Position numbers and translations under genes: made by a program. DNA of 64,000 nt from Patescibacteria group bacterium (GTDB lineage: Bacteria > Patescibacteriota > Minisyncoccia > Phycocordibacterales > UBA9973): contig JBBTYN010000004.1 of the NCBI GenBank assembly GCA_038061755.1, forward strand, positions 3,198-67,197, written 5' to 3'. This document shows positions 1,798 through 49,246 of this stretch, piece by piece (the first letter of the stretch is position 1; each line of letters begins with the position of its first letter). The notes beneath the pieces are model-generated. The model had not been told where the DNA came from. It made no database searches and saw only the letters and a list, made by a program, of their open reading frames with translations.

Positions 1798-1846
1798 ACT
1801 AGCAAGGACAGTTCTTACTAGCAAGGACAGTTCTTGCTAGTAAGAA
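1798..1846. repeat. A 19-bp unit (ACTAGCAAGGACAGTTCTT) repeated twice in tandem, followed by its partial inverse. Together they form a hairpin with a 14-bp stem and the near-palindrome AGCAAGgAC-a-GTTCTTGCT.
   Basis: Direct reading of the sequence. It lies in the divergent promoter region between the NUDIX-NTase gene (minus strand) and ORF 1982 (plus strand). Confidence 0.8.
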
Positions 1847-1981
1847 AAACTGGACACATGGTTTCGTATACAAAAATTTAATCTAATAAGCCCTTGAAAT
1901 AATTTCGTGCAAAAGTTATAATTAGATCATTAGAACTAGAAAATATTGTATTTCAGTTATTATTTATTATAATAGATATAT

Positions 1982-18313: not shown

Positions 18314-18386
18314 GGGCGATTAGTTTAGTGGTAGAACGAAGGCCTCCAAATCCTTTGGCGGGGGTTCGATTCCCTCATCGCCCGCA
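18314..18386 (+). tRNA. tRNA-Trp (anticodon CCA).
   Basis: Cloverleaf: acceptor GGGCGAT/ATCGCCC, T-loop TTCGATT, anticodon loop CTCCAAA. One C-U mismatch at the loop-closing pair. No 3' CCA is encoded. Confidence 0.7.
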
Positions 18387-20997: not shown

Positions 20998-21081
20998 TGC
21001 CCAAGGAGAGAATCGAACTCTCATGATGTTGCCATCAATAGATTTTGAGTCTATCGCGTCTACCAATTCCGCCACCTGGGC
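20998..21081 (-). tRNA. tRNA-Leu (anticodon CAA), class II with a long variable arm.
   Basis: Reverse complement begins GCCCAGGTGGCGGAATTGGTAGACGC. Anticodon loop CTCAAAA, a 15-nt variable arm, and T-loop TTCGATT. Confidence 0.85.
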
Positions 21082-31212: not shown

Positions 31213-31391
31213 AAAAGTGTGCAAAATTGATAAAAATATGATAATCTTCAATATATTTCTTCACCAGACTCATAAAAATAAAGTGGAAGAAGTAAGACAA
31301 TATTGGTCTAAAGTTACAGGCTTTTCTTTAAATAATTTTTCTACGGTATATTGGAAAAAGTAAAAGATATGCAATGAATTGTCGCTACTGC

Positions 31392-31462
31392 TGGGAGATC
31401 GTCTAATGGTAGGACACCTCCCTTTGAAGGAGGTTATCTTGGTTCGAATCCAAGCCTCCCAG
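31392..31462 (+). tRNA. tRNA-Gln (anticodon UUG).
   Basis: U1-A72 pair as in bacterial tRNA-Gln. Anticodon stem CCTCC/GGAGG with loop CTTTGAA, T-arm CTTGG-TTCGAAT-CCAAG, one A-C mismatch at positions 7-66. Confidence 0.75.
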
Positions 31463-31497
31463 CAGTGGTGAGAATTAACAAGATCTTTGAAGCCGTG

Positions 31498-31534
31498 GTA
31501 TAGCAAGGTATAGCAAGAACGGTTCTTGCTATAC
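31498..31534. repeat. Perfect 27-bp palindrome gtatagcaagaac-g-gttcttgctatac, preceded by a direct duplicate of its first 10 nt.
   Basis: Seen directly. It has the same AGCAAGAAC half-site as the repeat at 1798..1846. Confidence 0.85.
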
Positions 31535-33081: not shown

Positions 33082-33139
33082 GATATTAATATGTTAACGT
33101 AAACTACTAAATTTTACTAATAGCTTATTAAAAACAAAG

Positions 33140-33175
33140 AACCCACTTTACGACGACTAAATCGTAAGGTGGGTT
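33140..33175 (-). terminator. Long hairpin (14-bp stem) followed by a T-run on the minus strand, downstream of the GT2 gene.
   Basis: aacccactttacga...tcgtaaggtgggtt, then ttctttgttttt on the minus strand. Confidence 0.6.
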
Positions 33176-33191
33176 TTAAGATAATGACAGA

Positions 33192-33986
33192 TTACCTCAT
33201 TTTCTCTCGCCTTTTTGACATTTCCTGATCTACGCCAGGATAGTGTCGTTTTACATCTTCGATAGCCTGGAGGATATGGAGAGCATGGGTACCGAACCTC
33301 TCTACGCGTGCCTCTTGGTTACTAGGGGAATACTCCCGAGTAAGGAGAGGAAGATTTCCGTGGTTTCCGTAGATTGCCGGGTGGGCCACCTCTACCAACT
33401 TTGGTCGAGGATTGCTAAGATACCAGAATTTCACCAAGTGTTCAAGGTGAATTCCGTACCTCTCCTGATTTCCATGCTCGAGAGCAAACTCGAAGCAATG
33501 GCGACGCATCATCCAGAAACCAGACAATGGATCAGTGGTCTCCCAGCCAGTTGCAACCTGCATCTGAGCAGTAACTGCTACGTTTAGGAAGTCCCGATCA
33601 AGTGGTACCTGAATCCGTTCTGAATCTGGATGATATCGTGATGCAATCACAATATCGGCACCATCCTTAATCTTTTCGAACATCGTTATGAGAAAATTCT
33701 CATCATGCTGTCCGTCAGCATCCATAGTGGCCACTAAATCATAACTACCTTTTACTGCTTCATGATAACCTCGACGAAGACTATTACCTATACCCTTATT
33801 CTCGTGGTTTTGTAAAACTATGCATTCATGTTTCCTACAAATCACAGCAGTATTGTCTAACGATCCGTCGTCGATCACAAGGATATCAGACAGTAAATAG
33901 TCTGCAACTTTTTGAAGCCTAGGTAAAAACTGATCAAGCGACGCTGCTTCATTACAAGCAGCAATAACTATCAACATTTTTAACAT
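33192..33986 (-). CDS. Family-2 glycosyltransferase (DPM1-like). It is markedly GC-rich and probably horizontally acquired.
   Basis: GT-A fold with a DxD motif (VIDDGSLD ... MDADGQHD). GC is about 50% versus about 30% in neighbouring genes. Confidence 0.75.
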   Translation of the reverse strand: MLKMLIVIAACNEAASLDQFLPRLQKVADYLLSDILVIDDGSLDNTAVICRKHECIVLQNHENKGIGNSLRRGYHEAVKGSYDLVATMDADGQHDENFLITMFEKIKDGADIVIASRYHPDSERIQVPLDRDFLNVAVTAQMQVATGWETTDPLSGFWMMRRHCFEFALEHGNQERYGIHLEHLVKFWYLSNPRPKLVEVAHPAIYGNHGNLPLLTREYSPSNQEARVERFGTHALHILQAIEDVKRHYPGVDQEMSKRREKMR

Positions 33987-34061
33987 ACTCGTAATCCTCC
34001 TTTTTATTAATTAAGAACAATTTTTTTGTTAGCTTTTATCATAACATATTTTTAGTCATTG

Positions 34062-34910
34062 TCAAAATTTTTTGGTTAAGATTTTTATTTTGGTAACTGC
34101 CCGTTCTATATCATCATTAATTATAAGGATAACATCAATTTTTTTATTTATAGAATCTAATACTGATTTAAATTCACTTAATTGTCTTGTGCCCAAAGTT
34201 GAAACAATAGCTGACCTAAAGTCATCGTTCGTTTTTTGACACCTATCAGCTAGTCGTGCCGCGAGATGGAGTAAAATAGGTGCAGGAGGTAAAATATAAA
34301 CCAAAATAAATTCATAATCTTTATAAATTTTGAAATATTCAGCTAAGCTTGTTAGGTTGATCGGATTTTCTTCAATTAATATTATTTGTGATTTTTGCAA
34401 AACTTTTTCTATATCATGTTTTTGAATTCCATATTTTCCTCTTTTTTTTCTATTCATACATATTGCAAAACCATTTTGAGCAGCAATTTTTTTAAATTGA
34501 GCTTCATCAATGAAGTGGTAGTTTTTACCGTTTTTTTCATTCTTTCTTTTTTTTCGTGTAGTTGTATTAACAACTGTATTAAAACCCAAAGCATTTTTTA
34601 TAGTTTCCTTACCAACTGCACCAGGTCCAGCTATTCCAAAAATAATTTTTTTAATATTTGTTTTAAATAATTTTTTTTGAACTTTATTAAATAAAACTTG
34701 TTCAAGTTTATAAGGAATCTCATTAATATTACTATTCTTAATTCCTAATTCTTTTGCAAAAACATAAAGTGCTTGTTCCCAAGCCCTATAATGTATTAAT
34801 AATAAATCTATATTGTCTTCAACTAACCTAAAAACCTCTCTAGAATAAATATTCTCTAAAACCAGTAAATCCTTTTCGAAAGAAGATTTTAATGTTGGCT
34901 TTTTTCTCAT
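34062..34910 (-). CDS. gmk: Guanylate kinase-like protein with an N-terminal extension of about 95 aa.
   Basis: P-loop GPGAVGKET and TTRKKRKNEKNGKNYHFID (compare the canonical TTRPPRPGEVDGVDYHF). Confidence 0.6.
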   Translation of the reverse strand: MRKKPTLKSSFEKDLLVLENIYSREVFRLVEDNIDLLLIHYRAWEQALYVFAKELGIKNSNINEIPYKLEQVLFNKVQKKLFKTNIKKIIFGIAGPGAVGKETIKNALGFNTVVNTTTRKKRKNEKNGKNYHFIDEAQFKKIAAQNGFAICMNRKKRGKYGIQKHDIEKVLQKSQIILIEENPINLTSLAEYFKIYKDYEFILVYILPPAPILLHLAARLADRCQKTNDDFRSAIVSTLGTRQLSEFKSVLDSINKKIDVILIINDDIERAVTKIKILTKKF

Positions 34911-34979: not shown

Positions 34980-37886
34980 ATGATTTCCCGAATATATGTG
35001 ACACCTAAAGGCAAAGCTAATTTCATTAATTCTTATTTAATTTCACATAAATTTGCAAGTGATCAAAGAGATAAAATCCTTAAAATAGCCAAGGCTTTAA
35101 CTAACCCCATCCTCGAAGAATTTTTTATAAATAAATTCCCAAAAACAAAGAAATTTACTTATGTAATAGAAATAGGTTTTAAACCTGGGGTCACAGACAA
35201 TGTCGGGCATACTGTAGAAGAAACTATAATTGATTTACTGGGTGTTGTCGGGTGTCCAACACCCGACAACATAGCAGTCTATACTTCTAAGATTTTTTTA
35301 GTTTCCAATTCTAAATTAGAAGAAGTAAAAAAGATTGCTCTCTCGCTTCACAATCCTCTCATTGAGCGTTCTTATGTCGCGAGTTTTGCTGAAATAAAAA
35401 AAAATGGCTTACCCTTAAAGGTTCCTAAGGTTATTTTAAAAAAGGCTATTCCTGTAATTAATGTTTCTCTTAATGTGTCTGATGAAGAACTTAAAAAAAT
35501 CGGAAAAGAGGGGATAATGGACGAAACAAATATTAGACGAGGTCCTTTGGCTCTTGATTTGACATCAATGAAAGTAATCCAAGAACATTTTAAAAAATTT
35601 AAAAGAGATCCGACCGATATTGAGCTGGAGTCTCTTGCGCAGACTTGGTCTGAACATTGTAAACATACTATTTTTGCAAATCCTATTGACGACATCAAAG
35701 ACGGTTTATATAAAACATACATAAAAAGCGCAACAAATCTAATCAGAAAAAATAAAGGCAAAAATGATTTTTGTATTTCTGTATTTTCTGATAATTCTGG
35801 AGGAATAATTTTTGATAAAGATTATTTAATAACGCATAAAGTTGAAACACACAACAGCCCTTCAGCCTTAGATCCATTTGGAGGTGCTATCACAGGTATT
35901 GTGGGTGTAAATCGAGACACGATAGGTTTTGGCTTAGGTGCTAAACCAGTAGCTAATGTTTATGGTTTTTGTTTTGGAAACCCAGAAGATAAAAGCTTAC
36001 TTTTTCGCGACAAAAATTTAACACAAAAAATGCTTTCACCAAAAAGAATAATGGAAGGGGTGGTAAAAGGTATAAATGTAGGAGGAAACTGTTCCGGAAT
36101 ACCGACTCTTTCTGGTTTTGTTCATTATGATGATAGATATAGGGGCAAGCCTCTAGTTTTTGCTGGCACAGTCGGATTAATTCCAAGAAAAATACAAGGA
36201 AAATTATCACACAAAAAACAGGCACAAGTTGGAGATTATATCGTTGTTGTTGGCGGAAGAGTAGGGCTTGATGGTATTCATGGGGCAACTTTTTCTTCTG
36301 TGGTAATGGATTCAAGTTCCCCAGCGACCGCAGTGCAAATCAGTGACCCAATTACTCAAAAAAAATTAAGTGATGCAATAATTAAAGAAGCGCGTTATAT
36401 GAATTTATATAATAGTATTACTGATAATGGTGCTGGTGGAATTTCTTGTTCAGTTGCTGAAATGGCAAAAGAATGCGGGGGAGCAAAAGTTTTTTTGGAA
36501 AAAGTACCACTAAAATACCTGAGTCTTCGTCCATGGGAAATTTGGATTTCAGAATCACAAGAACGTATGACTTTATCGGTGCCAAAGAAAAAGTGGAGTA
36601 CATTCAAAAAATTAATGGAGAAAAGGGGAGTGGAAGCGACAGTAATAGGTGAATTTACAAATTCTAAAAAATGTATTGTAGAATATAGTGGTAAAAAAAT
36701 CATGGATATTGATATGGAATTTTTACATGAAGGACTTCCAAAACAACATTTAATTACTTCTTCAGTTATTTATAAAAATATTGAACCAATACTTGAAATA
36801 AAAAAATCTTTTACTGCAATTCTAGAAAAATTACTAAGTAATAAAAATCTTAGTGGATTTTCTTTTATTTCCGAACAATATGACCATGAAGTGCAAGGGT
36901 CTTCTGTTCTAAAACCACTTTCTGGGAGAGGTCGTATAAATACCGATGCACAAGTTTTTCAACCAGTTTTAAATTCAAATAAAGGAGTTATTTTGTCTTC
37001 TAGTACTTATCCTTCATATGGAGATATTAGCACTTATCATATGGCTTCTTGCGCGATAGATACTGCTATTAGAAATACTGTTTGTTCTGGTGGAACACTT
37101 TCGCATTTAGCAATTTTAGATAATTTTTGTTGGTGTTCATCCAATGACCCAAAACGTTTAGCGCAGTTAGTAGATTCAGTGAAAGCTTGTTATGAATATG
37201 CTGTAGGTTTTGGTACACCTTTTATTTCTGGCAAAGACAGTATGTTTAATGATTTTAAAGGTTATGATGAAAAAGGGGAGCCTATGGCTGTTTCTATACC
37301 ACCGACACTTCTTATTTCAGCGATCAGCGTTATGCCTGACTTAAATAAAACTGTTTCTCCAGAATTTAAAAAAATTGGCGATATAATTTATTTATTAGGA
37401 GAAACGAATGATGAACTTGGTGGGGGAGAATATTATAAAACACTTGGCGTTGTTGGTAGTAATGTACCAAAAGTAGATTTAAAGAAAAATATAAAAACTT
37501 ATCGCGCTTTAGAAAAAGCAATTCAAAAAGAATTAATAGCTTCGGCAATATCTGTAAATTCTGGCGGACTTGCAATAGCACTCGCCAAAGCCTGTGTGGG
37601 AGGAATGGTAGGTTGTAATGTTTCCCTAAAGAGCCAGATAGCGCCTAAGGCGCTATCTGTAGAAGTAAAATTATTTTCTGAAAGTCAGGGAAGAATTTTA
37701 GTTTCTGTTTCCCATCAAAATGTTGCTAAATTTGAGCAAATAACCGCTACTTTACCAAGGGTTACCCTTGGTAAAGTAATAAAAGATGGGAAATTTATAA
37801 TTACCAATGGTAAAAATAAAGTAGTAGAAACAAATATTAAAAAGTTGTATGATGCATACCATAAATTTTCTAACTCACAAAAATGA
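34980..37886 (+). CDS. purL: Phosphoribosylformylglycinamidine synthase, a PurS-like N-terminal domain and linker fused to a PurL synthetase. The glutaminase is encoded separately downstream.
   Basis: PurS-like segment VIEIGFKPGVTDNVGHTVEETI, then PTDIELESLAQTWSEHCKHTIF and the AIR-synthase-related FGAM domains. 968 aa. Confidence 0.85.
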   Translation: MISRIYVTPKGKANFINSYLISHKFASDQRDKILKIAKALTNPILEEFFINKFPKTKKFTYVIEIGFKPGVTDNVGHTVEETIIDLLGVVGCPTPDNIAVYTSKIFLVSNSKLEEVKKIALSLHNPLIERSYVASFAEIKKNGLPLKVPKVILKKAIPVINVSLNVSDEELKKIGKEGIMDETNIRRGPLALDLTSMKVIQEHFKKFKRDPTDIELESLAQTWSEHCKHTIFANPIDDIKDGLYKTYIKSATNLIRKNKGKNDFCISVFSDNSGGIIFDKDYLITHKVETHNSPSALDPFGGAITGIVGVNRDTIGFGLGAKPVANVYGFCFGNPEDKSLLFRDKNLTQKMLSPKRIMEGVVKGINVGGNCSGIPTLSGFVHYDDRYRGKPLVFAGTVGLIPRKIQGKLSHKKQAQVGDYIVVVGGRVGLDGIHGATFSSVVMDSSSPATAVQISDPITQKKLSDAIIKEARYMNLYNSITDNGAGGISCSVAEMAKECGGAKVFLEKVPLKYLSLRPWEIWISESQERMTLSVPKKKWSTFKKLMEKRGVEATVIGEFTNSKKCIVEYSGKKIMDIDMEFLHEGLPKQHLITSSVIYKNIEPILEIKKSFTAILEKLLSNKNLSGFSFISEQYDHEVQGSSVLKPLSGRGRINTDAQVFQPVLNSNKGVILSSSTYPSYGDISTYHMASCAIDTAIRNTVCSGGTLSHLAILDNFCWCSSNDPKRLAQLVDSVKACYEYAVGFGTPFISGKDSMFNDFKGYDEKGEPMAVSIPPTLLISAISVMPDLNKTVSPEFKKIGDIIYLLGETNDELGGGEYYKTLGVVGSNVPKVDLKKNIKTYRALEKAIQKELIASAISVNSGGLAIALAKACVGGMVGCNVSLKSQIAPKALSVEVKLFSESQGRILVSVSHQNVAKFEQITATLPRVTLGKVIKDGKFIITNGKNKVVETNIKKLYDAYHKFSNSQK

Positions 37887-38635
37887 AAAAGCCAAAAATA
37901 ATAATAATATCAGGATATGGATTAAATTGCGAAGAGGAAACAAAATTCGCTTTTGAGTTGGCGGGAGGGATTGCAAATATAGTACATATCAATGATTTAA
38001 TAAAAAAACCGAAAATGCTTAAAGAATATCAAATCTTAGTTTTTCCTGGAGGATTTTCTTATGGAGATGATACTGGTAGTGGAAAAGCCTATGCGAATAA
38101 ATTTAAAAATCATTTAGCGAAAGAGTTAACAGAATTTTTATCTCGCAATACTCTCACAATTGGTATTTGTAATGGATTTCAAATTATAACTAATTTAGGA
38201 ATTTTGCCTGGCGGGCTTACCTATAATAAAAATGGAAAATATATAGACAGATGGGTTGATTTAGAAGCAAAAGGAAACAGTCCCTGGCTCAAAGGTATTA
38301 AAAAAATATCACTGCCAATAGCGCATGGCGAAGGACATTATGTTATTTCCAAAAAAGAATACAAAAAAATGAGAAAAAATAAAGAAATTGCTTTTGTTTA
38401 TACAAATGGAGAAATTTGTAAGTTTCAAAATCTTGAAAAAAACCCAAACGGATCAGAATATGACATCGCAGGAGTTTTAGCATATAATGGCAGAGTGCTA
38501 GGTATGATGCCACATCCAGAACGTGCAATGTTTTCGCACCAAAGTCCAATATGGCAGATGGATAAGAATGTTCAAAAAGAGGGGGTAGGATTACAGATTT
38601 TTAAAAACGCAATTAATTATTTTTTAAATTCATGA
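37883..38635 (+). CDS. purQ: Phosphoribosylformylglycinamidine synthase glutaminase subunit.
   Basis: Class-I glutamine amidotransferase motif GICNGFQ and an HPE triad region. Confidence 0.85.
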   Translation: MKKPKIIIISGYGLNCEEETKFAFELAGGIANIVHINDLIKKPKMLKEYQILVFPGGFSYGDDTGSGKAYANKFKNHLAKELTEFLSRNTLTIGICNGFQIITNLGILPGGLTYNKNGKYIDRWVDLEAKGNSPWLKGIKKISLPIAHGEGHYVISKKEYKKMRKNKEIAFVYTNGEICKFQNLEKNPNGSEYDIAGVLAYNGRVLGMMPHPERAMFSHQSPIWQMDKNVQKEGVGLQIFKNAINYFLNS

Positions 38636-40029
38636 GCGAACTAAAAGAAAAATGTGGAATCGTAGGAATATACGGTAAAGATTTACCTATTTCTCGGTTA
38701 GCTTTTTTTGCTTTATTTGCATTACAACACAGAGGACAAGAAGCATCAGGCATCACCACTAATGATGGAAAAAAATTTCGTACTCATAAAGGCGCAGGAC
38801 TCGTATCTCAAGTATATACAGAAAAAACAATAAAAAAACTGACAGGGTATATAGCCATAGGGCACAATAGATACTCCACTTCCAAAGGGGGAGCACTTCA
38901 TCATGCTCAGCCAGTTGTAAACAAGGATGCTTCTTTTGCCTTAGCGCATAATGGCAACTTACCAAGTATAAAAGCATTAGAAAATTTTCTTTCTTCAAAA
39001 AAAATATTAAAAAAAGATCGTAATGACTCAGAACTTATAGCTGATGCTATAGATTTTTATATAAAAGAGGGTAACTCACTACCAAAATCTATTGAAAAAG
39101 CTTTTCCTTTATTTACTGGGTCTTTTTCTTTAATAATGATGAGTAAAGATACCTTAGTTGCTGTGCGAGACACTTATGGAATGCGTCCACTTGCGATAGG
39201 GAAACTTAATAAAGGTTATGTTATAGCTTCAGAAACATGCGCAATCCAAACTATCGGCGCAACATTTTTAAGAGAAGTAAAACCAGGAGAAATGATTATT
39301 ATAAATAAGGCTGGAATAAAAAGTATACAGTTAGCGCCATCAAATCCAAAACATGACATATTTGAATATGTTTATTTCGCTCGACCAGACAGCTCACTAA
39401 ATGGTAAATTAATTTATGAAGTCAGAAAAAACTTTGGAAAAGCACTTGCTCATGAGTTTAAGAAAAAAGTCGACATTATTGTACCTGTGCCTGATACAGC
39501 AATGCCTGTTGCCTTAGGGTATAGTCAAGCATCTGGCATTCCAATAGAAATGGCTTTGGTGAAAAATCGCTATGTCCATAGAACTTTTATTGAACCCGAT
39601 CAAAAATCTCGCCGGAATAGTGTTGCGCTTAAACTTATACCACTTCCACAAATTTTAAAAGGTAAAAAAATAGTAGTGATAGATGATTCTATAGTTAGGG
39701 GACACACGTGTAAAAAATTAGTTAAAACGTTTTTTAAAGCAGGCGCCAAAGAAGTGCATCTTTTGATCTCTTCTCCACCTATCCGTTATCCAGATTTTTA
39801 TGGTATGGACACACCTAATCAAAATGAATTAATTGCATCATATAAAACAGTAGAGGAAGTTCGTAAATTCATGGGAGCTACATCACTACATTATCTTTCA
39901 CTTGAAGGTTTAATAAAAGCTATTGGCTTACCTAAAGATAAATTATCCACATCATGCTTTACAGGTATTTACCCTATTGATTTAAAAGAACGAAAAAGTG
40001 AAGTACGATACGATGTCTCAACAAAATAA
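38632..40029 (+). CDS. purF: Amidophosphoribosyltransferase.
   Basis: Ntn-hydrolase N-terminus MSELKEKCGIVGIYG and a PRTase domain. Confidence 0.9.
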   Translation: MSELKEKCGIVGIYGKDLPISRLAFFALFALQHRGQEASGITTNDGKKFRTHKGAGLVSQVYTEKTIKKLTGYIAIGHNRYSTSKGGALHHAQPVVNKDASFALAHNGNLPSIKALENFLSSKKILKKDRNDSELIADAIDFYIKEGNSLPKSIEKAFPLFTGSFSLIMMSKDTLVAVRDTYGMRPLAIGKLNKGYVIASETCAIQTIGATFLREVKPGEMIIINKAGIKSIQLAPSNPKHDIFEYVYFARPDSSLNGKLIYEVRKNFGKALAHEFKKKVDIIVPVPDTAMPVALGYSQASGIPIEMALVKNRYVHRTFIEPDQKSRRNSVALKLIPLPQILKGKKIVVIDDSIVRGHTCKKLVKTFFKAGAKEVHLLISSPPIRYPDFYGMDTPNQNELIASYKTVEEVRKFMGATSLHYLSLEGLIKAIGLPKDKLSTSCFTGIYPIDLKERKSEVRYDVSTK

Positions 40030-46377: not shown

Positions 46378-47925
46378 ATGATAAAAGAAAATAAAAAAAT
46401 AAAATCAGCTTTAATTTCAGTTTTTAATAAAGATGGACTTGAAGAAATTGTAAAACTTCTTCATAGGCATAATGTAAAAATTATTTCTACTGGTGGTACG
46501 GCAGAATTTATTCGCAAACTTAGTGTACCAGTAACTGAAGTAGAAGAAATCACAAATTATCCTGCCTTATTTGGTGGTAGAGTTAAAACACTGCAACCAC
46601 AAATTTTTGGCGGGATTTTAAATCGCCGAGATAATGTAAATGATATAAAAGAAAAAGTGGAGCACAAAATAGAAGACATTGATTTGGTAATCGTAGACCT
46701 ATATCCATTTGAAGAAACTCTAGCTAGTGGAGCTAATGAGGAAGAAATTATTGAAAAAATAGACATCGGCGGAGTATCTTTAATTCGCGCAGCGGCGAAA
46801 AATTTTAATGATGTCGTAGTGATTCCTTCAAAACATCAATATGAAGAATTAAAAAATATTTTAAAAATAAGTGACACTACGACATTAGAACAACGCAAAA
46901 AATTTGCAGGCAATGCATTTGAAGTGACAAGTATTTACGATAGTGCTATTCGTGGGTATTTTCAACCTTTGCCAAAGATGCCCTTTGACATATTGATGTC
47001 AAAGGGCATCTTTGGCAATATCCCGCTGCGCTATGGAGAAAACCCACACCAAAGAGCAAAATTTATAGGTAATTTAGAAGAGAGTTTTATACAACTTCAT
47101 GGAAAAGAGCTTTCTTATAATAATTTGATGGATACTGAAGCTGCCATTATGACCGTTTATGATTTTAGAGATCCTGCTTTCGCTATTGTTAAACATATGA
47201 ATACTTGCGGTCTGGCTGTTAGGGAAGAAGGACATTTATTTGAGGCGTATCAAGCAGCTTATAATGCCGACCCACTTTCAGCTTTTGGTGGAGTATTAAC
47301 AGCTAATAGAATTATTGAGGAAGACATCGCTAAACTTATCAAGGAACAAAAACTTTTTATAGAAGTAATTATTGCGCCAGATTTTTCAAAAGAAGCTTTA
47401 AATATTTTAATGGAGAAAAAGGATTGTAGAATTTTGAGGTGGAAAAAACCAAACCTTCCGCTAAAACAAAACAAGACTTGCTTTACTGGAATTCTGTCGC
47501 AAGATCGAGATACTCATATAGAAAGTGAGACAGATTTAAAAGTGACAACTAAGCGTGAACCAACAGAGCAAGAGAAAAAGGATTTACTCATTGCTGCAGT
47601 AATAACGAAACATTTAAAATCTAATGCTATCGCTTTAGTAAAAGATGGAACACTTCTTTCAATGGGTTGTGGACAAACTTCACGCATTGATGCATTAAAA
47701 CAAGCTATTGATAAAGCCAAAAAATTTAAATTTTCACTCAAGGGTGCTGTTATGTCATCTGAAGCATTTTTCCCATTTCCTGATTGCGTAGAGATGGCAG
47801 GGGAAGAAGGTATAACTGCTGTACTTCATCCTGGAGGTTCAAAGAATGATCAAACATCCATAGATATGGCAAATAAATACAAAATGGCAATGGTAACAAC
47901 TGGCTTTAGACATTTTAAGCATTGA
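46378..47925 (+). CDS. purH: Bifunctional AICAR transformylase / IMP cyclohydrolase. It carries an in-frame copy of the palindromic element at 46971..47016.
   Basis: MGS-like N-terminal domain and an AICARFT domain (LRYGENPHQ). Confidence 0.9.
   Translation: MIKENKKIKSALISVFNKDGLEEIVKLLHRHNVKIISTGGTAEFIRKLSVPVTEVEEITNYPALFGGRVKTLQPQIFGGILNRRDNVNDIKEKVEHKIEDIDLVIVDLYPFEETLASGANEEEIIEKIDIGGVSLIRAAAKNFNDVVVIPSKHQYEELKNILKISDTTTLEQRKKFAGNAFEVTSIYDSAIRGYFQPLPKMPFDILMSKGIFGNIPLRYGENPHQRAKFIGNLEESFIQLHGKELSYNNLMDTEAAIMTVYDFRDPAFAIVKHMNTCGLAVREEGHLFEAYQAAYNADPLSAFGGVLTANRIIEEDIAKLIKEQKLFIEVIIAPDFSKEALNILMEKKDCRILRWKKPNLPLKQNKTCFTGILSQDRDTHIESETDLKVTTKREPTEQEKKDLLIAAVITKHLKSNAIALVKDGTLLSMGCGQTSRIDALKQAIDKAKKFKFSLKGAVMSSEAFFPFPDCVEMAGEEGITAVLHPGGSKNDQTSIDMANKYKMAMVTTGFRHFKH
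46971..47016. repeat. Nested palindromic element, copy 4, variant B. It lies inside the purH ORF at the inter-domain linker and is translated as LPKMPFDILMSKGIFG.
   Basis: gccaaagatgccctttgacat-attg-atgtcaaagggcatctttggc with 21-bp perfect arms. The ORF is left open. Confidence 0.9.
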
Positions 47926-47974: not shown

Positions 47975-48000
47975 AATCTCAGAAATGAGATTTTATTTTT
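47975..48000 (+). terminator. Intrinsic terminator after purH.
   Basis: aatctca-gaaa-tgagatt followed by ttttattttt. Confidence 0.6.
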
Positions 48001-48028
48001 GTTCTACATAATAAAAAAGGAGAGTGAA

Positions 48029-48613
48029 ATGAAAAAATTATTTTTAACGGTGGTGGTTGTGGCCATATTAGCATTTTCAATTTCTTGCCGGGCGGACGAA
48101 GTGTCACTAGTGAGAATTAATGTTGTCAAAAAAACCGCTGGATTTGTCGCTGGATTTGCGTCCGGATTAGGTTTTCACGAGCTTGGACATGAAGCCATGG
48201 CTAAACTTGAAGGAGCGGAAATGCACTGGAGTGATACGAACTGGAGTACCAATGCATCCCCAGCGACCTTGCGAAACATTGCCATTGCCGGTTTCGGGGC
48301 TCAAATATTGAGCACTGAAGTTATGCTGGGAACTAACATCATCCCAAAAGACAACTCGTTTGTCTTGGGATGGTTGACTTTCAACATACTGAATACCGTA
48401 CAGTATGTTGTAACAGATAATTTGCGAAATGGAGGTTACGGAGATTTTGAGACTCTCCGTAATAACGGAGGAAATACGGATTTGGTAAAAATCGGACTAT
48501 TGGTGCACGCAGTATTGAGCGCCTACCGACTCTATAAAAATCCAAAATTTATTCCGTATGTCAGCGCGACCAAGGATGAGTTTGTCCTTGGACTAGCATG
48601 GAAATGGGATTAA
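48029..48613 (+). CDS. Secreted or lipoprotein-like protein with an HExxH motif (putative Zn-metallopeptidase-like). It is GC-rich and inserted between purH and purE.
   Basis: Strong SD AAAGGAG. Signal peptide with a Cys (MKKLFLTVVVVAILAFSISC) and a HELGHE motif. GC is about 43% versus about 32% locally. Confidence 0.6.
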   Translation: MKKLFLTVVVVAILAFSISCRADEVSLVRINVVKKTAGFVAGFASGLGFHELGHEAMAKLEGAEMHWSDTNWSTNASPATLRNIAIAGFGAQILSTEVMLGTNIIPKDNSFVLGWLTFNILNTVQYVVTDNLRNGGYGDFETLRNNGGNTDLVKIGLLVHAVLSAYRLYKNPKFIPYVSATKDEFVLGLAWKWD

Positions 48614-48709: not shown

Positions 48710-49246
48710 ATGAAAAATCTAAAAGTTGGTATAGTTATGGGTTCAGATTCAGATTTGGAAATAATGACGGAAGCGGCAAAAATTCTTGAAGAATTTAATG
48801 TGCATTATGAAATGACTGTAGCTTCTGCGCATCGAAGTCCTGATTTAGTACATAAATACACAACCAGTGCAAAATCTCGCGGATTGAAAATTATTATTGC
48901 TGGTGCAGGTGGAGCAGCGCATTTAGCAGGAGTTATCGCATCACTGACGACTCTTCCTATTATCGGTGTCCCAATTAAATCAAAATATTTAAAAGGACTT
49001 GATTCTTTATTTTCTACTGTCCAAATGCCTCCAGGTGTACCAGTAGCCACTGTCGGAATTAATGCAGGGAAAAATGCTGGACTTTTAGCTTTACAAATAC
49101 TTGCAACAGGTGATAAAAATTTAGAAAAAAAATTAGTTGCCTATAAAAATAAAATGAGTAGTGAAGTGAAAGCAAAAGGAGAAAAACTTTTAAAAGTTGG
49201 ATATAAAAAATATCTATCTGCGCAGGAAAGTTTAGAAAATAAATAA
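48710..49246 (+). CDS. purE: PurE (N5-CAIR mutase or class II AIR carboxylase). No purK is found in the window.
   Basis: [14 protein letters not shown] motif. Confidence 0.9.

Follow-up and report, generated by a model that had tools for sequence, protein, structure and literature searches.

A GC-rich glycosyltransferase gene in a low-GC Patescibacteria genome is probably long resident and not recently acquired

Does a GC-rich gene that carries its own terminator within a very AT-rich genome mark a recently acquired island? The combination mimics the textbook case, and it is found at a GT2 glycosyltransferase gene (hereafter GT2) in a low-GC groundwater Patescibacteria genome, of which we analyzed a stretch of 64,000 nucleotides (the window; mean GC 33.0%). 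The initial annotation had put the gene at about 50% GC against about 30% in its flanks, with correspondingly different codon usage, and had taken it for a recent horizontal acquisition. It had also named two findings that would speak against that view: uniform GC on recomputation, and conservation of the gene at this locus across the lineage. GC in the window is not uniform. GT2 is its maximum, and the excess over the surroundings stands, but the recomputed value for the gene is 44.2%, and a single 300-bp segment (33250–33549) reaches 50.3%. Compared with other 795-bp segments (s.d. 3.2%), GT2 is the highest such stretch in the 64 kb (z ~3.5; runner-up 40.9%). The flanking genes have the low GC first ascribed to them (26.6% for the guanylate-kinase-like gene, 30.7% for YvcK, and 26.2% for the HAD gene). 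Codon usage differs as well: GT2 has a third-position GC (GC3) of 40.5%, the second highest among 59 genes, whose median is 21% (z 3.7).

The layout of the locus is given in Table 1. The gene product matches PF00535 (Glycos_transf_2) over residues 6–165 with an E-value of 6.3e-24 and a score of 85.2 bits (cut-off 23.3). The upstream guanylate-kinase-like gene, which scores below the NCBIfam equivalog cut-off and belongs to a small family of 15 clusters, has a host-like composition (GC3 15.6%), as does the downstream neighbor (GC3 18%), whose assignment to the YvcK family agrees with the initial annotation. The divergent purL gene served as both synteny anchor and divergence yardstick.

Table 1 Features of the GT2 locus in the window.
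Feature	Position	Strand	Details
GT2 glycosyltransferase gene, 264 aa	33192..33986	minus	ORF and PF00535
Promoter-like site for GT2	34038..34065	minus	TTGACA, 16-nt spacer, TATGAT, extended -10 TG
Shine-Dalgarno GGAGG	33996..34000	minus	~9 nt 5' of the GT2 ATG, read from the sequence
Predicted intrinsic terminator	33126..33175	minus	Hairpin 33140-33175, U-rich tail 33126-33139
Guanylate-kinase-like protein, 282 aa, N-terminal extension	34062..34910	minus	Upstream neighbor, PF00625 E 6e-14
YvcK/CofD-family protein, 328 aa	32095..33081	minus	Downstream neighbor, TIGR01826 E 6.5e-82, above cut-off
HAD-family hydrolase, 181 aa	31543..32088	minus	PF13419 E 2e-6; last gene of the minus-strand block
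purL (FGAM synthase)	34980..37886	plus	First gene of the divergent purine operon; Pfam architecture in L001
Antisense ORF, 114 aa	33243..33587	plus	Inside the GT2 gene; spurious

Judged from its sequence signals, GT2 appears to be a monocistronic gene equipped with a promoter-like site, a strong Shine-Dalgarno, and an intrinsic terminator of its own. The promoter-like site, recognized by consensus match in a consensus scan (11 of 12 positions), overlaps the stop of the upstream guanylate-kinase-like gene. The leader that contains the Shine-Dalgarno (~33990–34035, ~45 nt) aligns almost without difference to that of the related locus L110. Sixteen nucleotides past the GT2 stop lies a hairpin followed by the U-rich stretch UUCUUUGUUUUU, as expected of an intrinsic (Rho-independent) terminator. 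The 14-bp stem described earlier is present as 14 pairs with one mismatch (7+7 bp; arms 33140–33153 and 33162–33175) around a 6-nt loop, with a predicted folding energy of -18.7 kcal/mol (z -3.9 vs. shuffles). L110 has a homologous terminator (AAACCCAC...GTGGGTT) that is recognizably orthologous, and a strong hairpin with a T-tract lies 3' of the gene in nearly all family loci.

We partitioned the GC excess by codon position. Against the 58 other genes of the window, GT2 has a GC1 of 58.0% (host 45.3%), a GC2 of 34.5% (33.0%), and a GC3 of 40.5% (21.2%), while the values expected from its amino acids under host codon usage are 55.7, 34.6, and 23.7%, respectively. Amino-acid composition explains the whole GC1/GC2 excess, or ~43% of the 11-point total, and codon choice explains the rest. 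The protein is poorer in Lys, Ile, and Asn and richer in Arg, His, Asp, Gln, and Ala. The conserved ATP-synthase genes of the window combine a high GC1 with an ordinary GC3; conservation by itself therefore does not push GC3 up.

The codon-choice component is confined to one class of codons. GT2 favors G- or C-ending codons only in split boxes (GAG, CAG, AAG, AGG, TTC, and ATC), and AGA is not used. The G-ending fraction of NNR codons is 0.57 in GT2 vs. 0.18 in the host (p 4e-11), the C-ending fraction of NNY codons 0.39 vs. 0.18 (p 8e-5), and the ATC fraction of Ile codons 0.31 vs. 0.10; AGA accounts for 0 of 18 codons, compared with 33% in the host. Four-fold sites, in contrast, are close to the host in GC (27.8 vs. 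22.4%, p 0.12) and share its base spectrum (A.31, C.14, G.14, T.41 in GT2;.35,.11,.11, and.43 in the host). A gene recently imported from a GC-richer donor should show the reverse, with its largest excess at four-fold sites. The difference between split-box and four-fold GC is +0.17 in GT2, rank 1 of 54 in the window, and sampled host means range from -0.25 to +0.01. This contrast lies beyond every sampled host mean and fits no donor genome. An ORF at 31270..31506 with a high split-box GC is spurious and overlaps a tRNA.

The same anomaly recurs across the family. In four relatives, GT2 GC is 45.5–49.5% vs. 36–39%. Over 18 family loci whose hosts span a GC3 of 21–58%, the gene's GC3 follows that of its host (r = 0.80), with a mean excess of +10.2 points at GC1, +2.3 at GC2, and +8.5 at GC3. 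The largest GC3 excess of the 18 is that of the window GT2 (+19), and four loci (L018, L098, L100, and L113) show none. Paired tests over 16 loci give +15.3 for G-ending NNR codons (p.001), +19.9 for Ile ATC (p.0005), +9.3 for C-ending NNY codons (p.003), and +2.6 for four-fold sites (p.23). In 12 of 14 loci GT2 ranks 1–3 for split-box minus four-fold GC. Since the contrast recurs in hosts with a GC3 from 21 to 58%, it is a property of the GT2 gene. In comparisons with all relatives, synonymous sites are close to saturated, the same codon being used at 0.40–0.57 of identical residues with ~0.36 expected by chance; the bias is therefore a maintained state and not a relic.

The position of the gene is likewise shared. 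In five related genomes of Patescibacteria, GT2 adjoins the same divergent purine operon that begins with purL (beside purL in L011/L012/L101, L014/L015, L109, and L110), in a sample biased to carriers, as most relatives were found with GT2 as the query. In L110 it directly follows the same guanylate-kinase-like gene, and in L013 a YvcK/CofD gene comes directly downstream of it. GT2 has diverged about as far as the neighboring genes: identity between the window and L109 is 79.6% for GT2 and 79.2% for purL; to L110 it is 76.7% for both, with the guanylate-kinase-like ortholog at 87.8%; and to L014 it is 76.0% for GT2, 77.1% for purF, 73.9% for purQ, and 69.4% for purL. A GT2 protein 100% identical to that of the window occurs on 20 contigs, with the same context in all 10 places listed. 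Gene order by purL is nonetheless mosaic among lineages, with TrmB-GT2-NUDIX in some and guanylate-kinase-like-GT2-YvcK in others. The ranking of L011 and L014 differs among GT2, purL, and purF in pairwise identities from few loci (purF is 54% identical to that of L011), and these discordant rankings indicate that recombination among lineages has occurred here.

To escape the sampling of GT2 carriers only, a second search was made by the upstream neighbor. It returned a Ca. Nomurabacteria relative (L115–L117) in which purL, the guanylate-kinase-like gene, YvcK, HAD, and dnaX follow one another in the order of the window, with HAD in the same position. GT2 is missing at exactly this junction, and the gap from the guanylate-kinase-like gene to YvcK is 6 bp. 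The presence/absence check proposed in the initial annotation thus finds the gene lacking in one relative. By purL, L115 is 75% identical to the window (L011 77%, L014 71%), and it comes closest to L014 (77%), which carries GT2. Because L115 lies amid GT2-bearing genomes and GT2 stands beside purL in 5 of the 6 genomes at its depth, a single loss is more parsimonious than repeated gains, and lineage-specific loss would be the best reading of the absence. Relatives that have diverged further than L115 (P0132/P0138, P0135/P0023, and P0122/P0003) probably share the adjacency of the guanylate-kinase-like gene and GT2, as matching record sizes suggest. An allele replacement considered for P0124 (99% for the guanylate-kinase-like protein) and P0026 (57% for GT2) was discarded, the equal record size being coincidental. 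The short contig L114, from the same organism, ends in the guanylate-kinase-like gene.

How, then, did the gene come to stand out in this place? The initial annotation's account, in which a GC-richer donor recently supplied a GT2 cassette between the guanylate-kinase-like gene and YvcK that has not yet ameliorated to the host, draws on the gene's rank as the top outlier of the window in GC and GC3, on its absence at this very junction in L115–L117, and on the promoter-like site and terminator that it carries. With compositionally atypical genomic islands the gene shares a local peak in GC and GC3 and presence/absence variation in one relative. The strongest donor signal is expected at four-fold sites, yet these carry the host spectrum; the elevated GC1 and GC2 are accounted for by amino acids, and no sampled host has a genome-wide codon pattern like that of GT2. 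The atypical composition of an island would extend to all synonymous classes, whereas here split boxes are atypical, four-fold sites are host-like, and the excess is family-wide. No integrase or transposase lies beside the gene, whose neighbors are housekeeping genes. There is no tRNA at the boundary, the nearest (31392–31462) being 1.7 kb off, beyond YvcK and HAD, and flanking repeats around the cassette (target-site duplications and terminal inverted repeats) are at chance level (inverted repeats p 0.32, direct repeats p 0.80). Among close relatives, GT2 is missing from the locus only in L115–L117; elsewhere it is syntenic, with the divergence of purL, purQ, and purF and near-saturated synonymous sites, its terminator and leader have orthologs in L110, and the identical protein keeps its context wherever it is listed. 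The gene is conserved in place across the lineage, the second of the findings that had been named as speaking against recent acquisition; we regard such an acquisition as very unlikely.

An older event deserves more weight. Starting from an ancestral operon of the guanylate-kinase-like gene, YvcK, and HAD, a promoter-GT2-terminator cassette could have moved in before the window and L110 lineages split. Its source would be the TrmB-GT2-NUDIX arrangement of a related Patescibacterium and its route recombination in the conserved purL region. In that case too, the GC excess would be a family trait with no donor signature. The 6-bp junction in L115–L117 resembles an undisturbed operon rather than a deletion scar, GT2 is cassette-like in having its own promoter and terminator, the gene orders by purL and the L011/L014 rankings (with the low purF identity to L011) bespeak exchange, and a recombinase and a Rep gene lie a few kb away in L115–L117. 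On the other side, one loss in L115 takes fewer events than several gains would, GT2 is again next to YvcK in L013, the adjacency with the guanylate-kinase-like gene probably reaches deeper than L115, and no insertion scars are seen at GT2. We therefore hold such an old insertion or shuffling to be possible, if unlikely. Taken together, these results favor GT2 being a long-resident gene whose GC content comes from its amino-acid content and a family-wide split-box codon preference and not from a recent foreign origin (probability roughly 0.7). The main value of the locus is cautionary: conserved amino-acid composition combined with gene-specific codon choice can make a vertically inherited gene look like an island. 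Separating four-fold from split-box sites and following an anomaly across hosts could be used on other composition-based island calls.

If GT2 is a long-resident gene, its codon bias would be kept by selection on the GT2 mRNA or its translation. One version is that the split-box switch reflects selected translational control, with the GT2 mRNA read by C34/G34 tRNAs and thereby independent of wobble-U34 modification, or else responsive to the supply of those tRNAs. The boxes named in this connection are Glu, Gln, Lys, Arg-AGR, Leu-TTR, Phe, and Ile. We rate this as improbable; if true, organisms whose regulatory repertoire is minimal would couple synthesis of a putative envelope-glycosylation enzyme to their physiological state. 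Selection for translational accuracy (Akashi-type) was rejected, as conserved residues show no enrichment of GC-ending codons (OR 0.9, p 0.34). For an expression-linked bias the genes compared are divided: S15 and HU in L111 share the signature (+0.25), and L27 of the window, L19 of L016, and L19 of L113 do not. A second function in the same DNA might instead impose the GC richness, either through the 114-aa antisense ORF, which coincides with the GC-richest 3' half of GT2, or through a conserved RNA structure. The antisense frame, however, is interrupted by stops in L110, L011, L109, and L014, and it is open here because TTA, CTA, and TCA codons are absent from the GC-rich 3' half. Family members do not share a GC3 profile along the gene, and their synonymous sites are near saturation; per-column counts of GC-ending codons are slightly over-dispersed (s.d. 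1.29 vs. 0.83–1.14), as from shared ancestry alone; and Rfam gives no match within the gene. We accord this explanation almost no probability. A recombination mosaic with a recently imported 3' half was likewise dismissed, as codon identity is not raised with any sampled relative.

The protein belongs to a small, uncharacterized, TM-less, DPMS-like GT2 family of Patescibacteria. A protein search recovers a tight family of ~65 clusters, each of ~265 aa and 44–80% identical, beneath which scores fall steeply to generic GT2 matches. A comprehensive profile search reduces the core family to a single 50%-identity representative plus more distant full-length relatives; an annotation look-up for the latter found none annotated, and a literature search for the family found nothing. 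Scanning genome contigs with the full-length alignment gave 2 family loci among matches dominated by the generic DxD pattern, and scanning metagenomes with the C-terminal alignment gave 11. Proteins of the relatives are labeled Candidatus Nomurabacteria, Paceibacterota, or Patescibacteria, and the window itself matches metagenome contigs from Hainich groundwater, the longest of 143 kb. The protein has the GT-A Rossmann-like fold, and both the DxD motif (D89-A-D91 in DADGQHD) and D40-G-S (in DDGS) are invariant in 61 family sequences. The acceptor-loop motif D-P-x-S-G-F is present as DPLSGF. The C-terminal region (aa ~170–264) is family-specific and strongly conserved (RYGIHLE...HPAIY...RFGTHALHI). 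No TM segment was found in the 264 residues, the maximum Kyte-Doolittle value (19-residue span) being 1.19 at an N-terminal β-strand.

Among characterized enzymes, the closest to the family in sequence and structure, the acceptor-loop motif included, are polyprenyl-phosphate glycosyltransferases, with archaeal DPMS first, followed by ArnC and GtrB. The DPMS reference is that of Pyrococcus furiosus (PDB 5mlz/5mm1/9ep0), and its eukaryotic counterpart is DPM1. The label "DPM1-like" used earlier is a fair statement of resemblance, dolichyl-phosphate mannose synthase being the nearest solved relative by sequence profile and by structure. PfDPMS has 355–374 residues and a C-terminal membrane domain, whereas GT2 has no hydrophobic segment, and its own conserved C-terminal region is not covered when its profile is aligned to DPMS. 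GT2 also lacks the two TM helices of ArnC and GtrB, and its sequence matches to bacterial polyprenyl-phosphate enzymes cover the N-terminal ~125 residues only. Scores against the NCBIfam equivalogs are far below the cut-offs (PpgS 51.3 vs. 370, AglJ 40 vs. 325, DPhHxTase 33 vs. 375, and ArnC 30.7 vs. 529). GT2 lacks the C-terminal TM helices that anchor polyprenyl-phosphate glycosyltransferases in the membrane. Human DPM1 is also without a TM segment and is anchored by its partner DPM3, and TM-less polyprenyl-phosphate glycosyltransferases that work through partner proteins exist; the absence of a TM segment therefore does not exclude a polyprenyl-phosphate mechanism. No DPM3-type anchoring partner was identified for GT2 here. 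Glucosyl- and mannosyl-3-phosphoglycerate synthases (GpgS of GT81, and MpgS) and mannosylglycerate synthase give no significant PDB sequence-profile match to GT2, and the NCBIfam GpgS model scores 21 (cut-off 262). These three enzymes are retaining, whereas GT2 enzymes are inverting.

In relatives, the family recurs in the neighborhood of NUDIX, TrmB, and sugar-nucleotidyltransferase genes. TrmB, NUDIX, and DUF2914 partners were looked for in the 64-kb window and are absent from it, and the HAD gene next to the locus is not consistently found with the family. We infer that GT2, a soluble or peripheral GT-A glycosyltransferase, binds an NDP-sugar through its DxD motif and a divalent cation. The NDP-sugar would be made by the products of the sugar-nucleotidyltransferase and NUDIX genes that accompany GT2 in relatives. 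Polyprenyl phosphate or another acceptor with a phosphate group would probably receive the sugar, and the enzyme would work at the membrane although it has no TM anchor itself. The family is thereby a candidate for an envelope-glycosylation step in organisms with poorly known surface biology.

Within the window, a gene between purH and purE that matched no Pfam family is a better candidate for horizontal acquisition than the glycosyltransferase gene GT2. This orphan gene has a GC content of 42.6% and a GC3 of 43%, and encodes a product with a signal-peptide-like N-terminus. Four-fold (0.42) and split-box (0.38) sites alike are raised in GC, and it is this joint elevation that places the gene ahead of GT2, since a uniform rise is the signature expected for a foreign or inserted gene. 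Another compositional outlier, a 78-aa ORF at 31270..31506 (-), is spurious and lies across a tRNA gene read from the other strand.

The codon signature of GT2 recurs in L111, a relative. There, the genes for HU and ribosomal protein S15 combine G/C-rich split-box codons with host-like four-fold sites, as in GT2, giving a split-box minus four-fold GC difference of +0.25 compared to 0.00 for the L111 host. The signature is absent from the ribosomal genes of three other genomes.

Coordinates of the features discussed, by locus.
Feature	Locus	Position	Strand	Remark
Orphan gene	window	47999..48613	+	likely start ATG at 48029
purH	window	46378..47925		flanks orphan gene
purE	window	48710..49246		flanks orphan gene
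HU	L111	829..1104		GT2-like codon signature
Ribosomal protein S15	L111	11530..11790		GT2-like codon signature
GT2 leader	window	about 33990..34035	-	L110 counterpart about 1830..1892
“Guanylate kinase” neighbour	window	34062..34910	-	atypical
purF	window	38632..40029		compared with L011 120..1544
REP_ORF2-G2P replication-initiator-like gene and large serine recombinase	L115	17245..19508
REP_ORF2-G2P replication-initiator-like gene and large serine recombinase	L117	8685..10948
tRNA	window	31392..31462	+	overlapped by spurious ORF
tRNA	window	18314..18384	+
tRNA	window	20998..21081	-

The leader of GT2 (GCTAACA.AAAATTGTTCTTAATTAA...GGAGGATTAC) is almost identical in the window and in L110, a relative with the same guanylate-kinase-like/GT2 gene order, in contrast to the synonymous sites of the GT2 coding region, which are saturated between the two. 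A verbatim copy was not found in the other family loci. The leader may be an operator or a 5′UTR element.

In L016 and L113, which hold deeper members of the family at 51% identity, the GT2 gene is the last of a co-directional cluster, and a MJ0043_C-domain protein is encoded shortly downstream. The L113 cluster contains NTP_transferase, GAPDH, inositol monophosphatase, TrmB, GlmS, NTP_transf_4, a second NTP_transferase, and NUDIX genes. The L016 cluster comprises a glucosamine-6-P isomerase-family gene, TrmB, NTP_transf_4, and two NTP_transferases, and lacks GAPDH, inositol monophosphatase, GlmS, and NUDIX genes. These clusters may represent an ancestral sugar-activation operon.

The guanylate-kinase-like neighbour of GT2 carries an N-terminal extension of ~90 aa, scores 78 bits against the guanylate-kinase equivalog model (far under the 160-bit cut-off), and is one of a very small family, its 15 clusters all within this Patescibacteria group. 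In L115 and L117, relatives that lack GT2, the replication-initiator-like and serine recombinase genes lie downstream of the HAD gene at a distance of a few kb, so a mobile element is present close to the locus. The purine-cluster genes have mosaic histories among the window, L011, and L014 lineages, as the window and L011 share only 54% identity in purF, where the adjoining purL and purQ reach 73-78%, and the window and L014 share 77% in purF.
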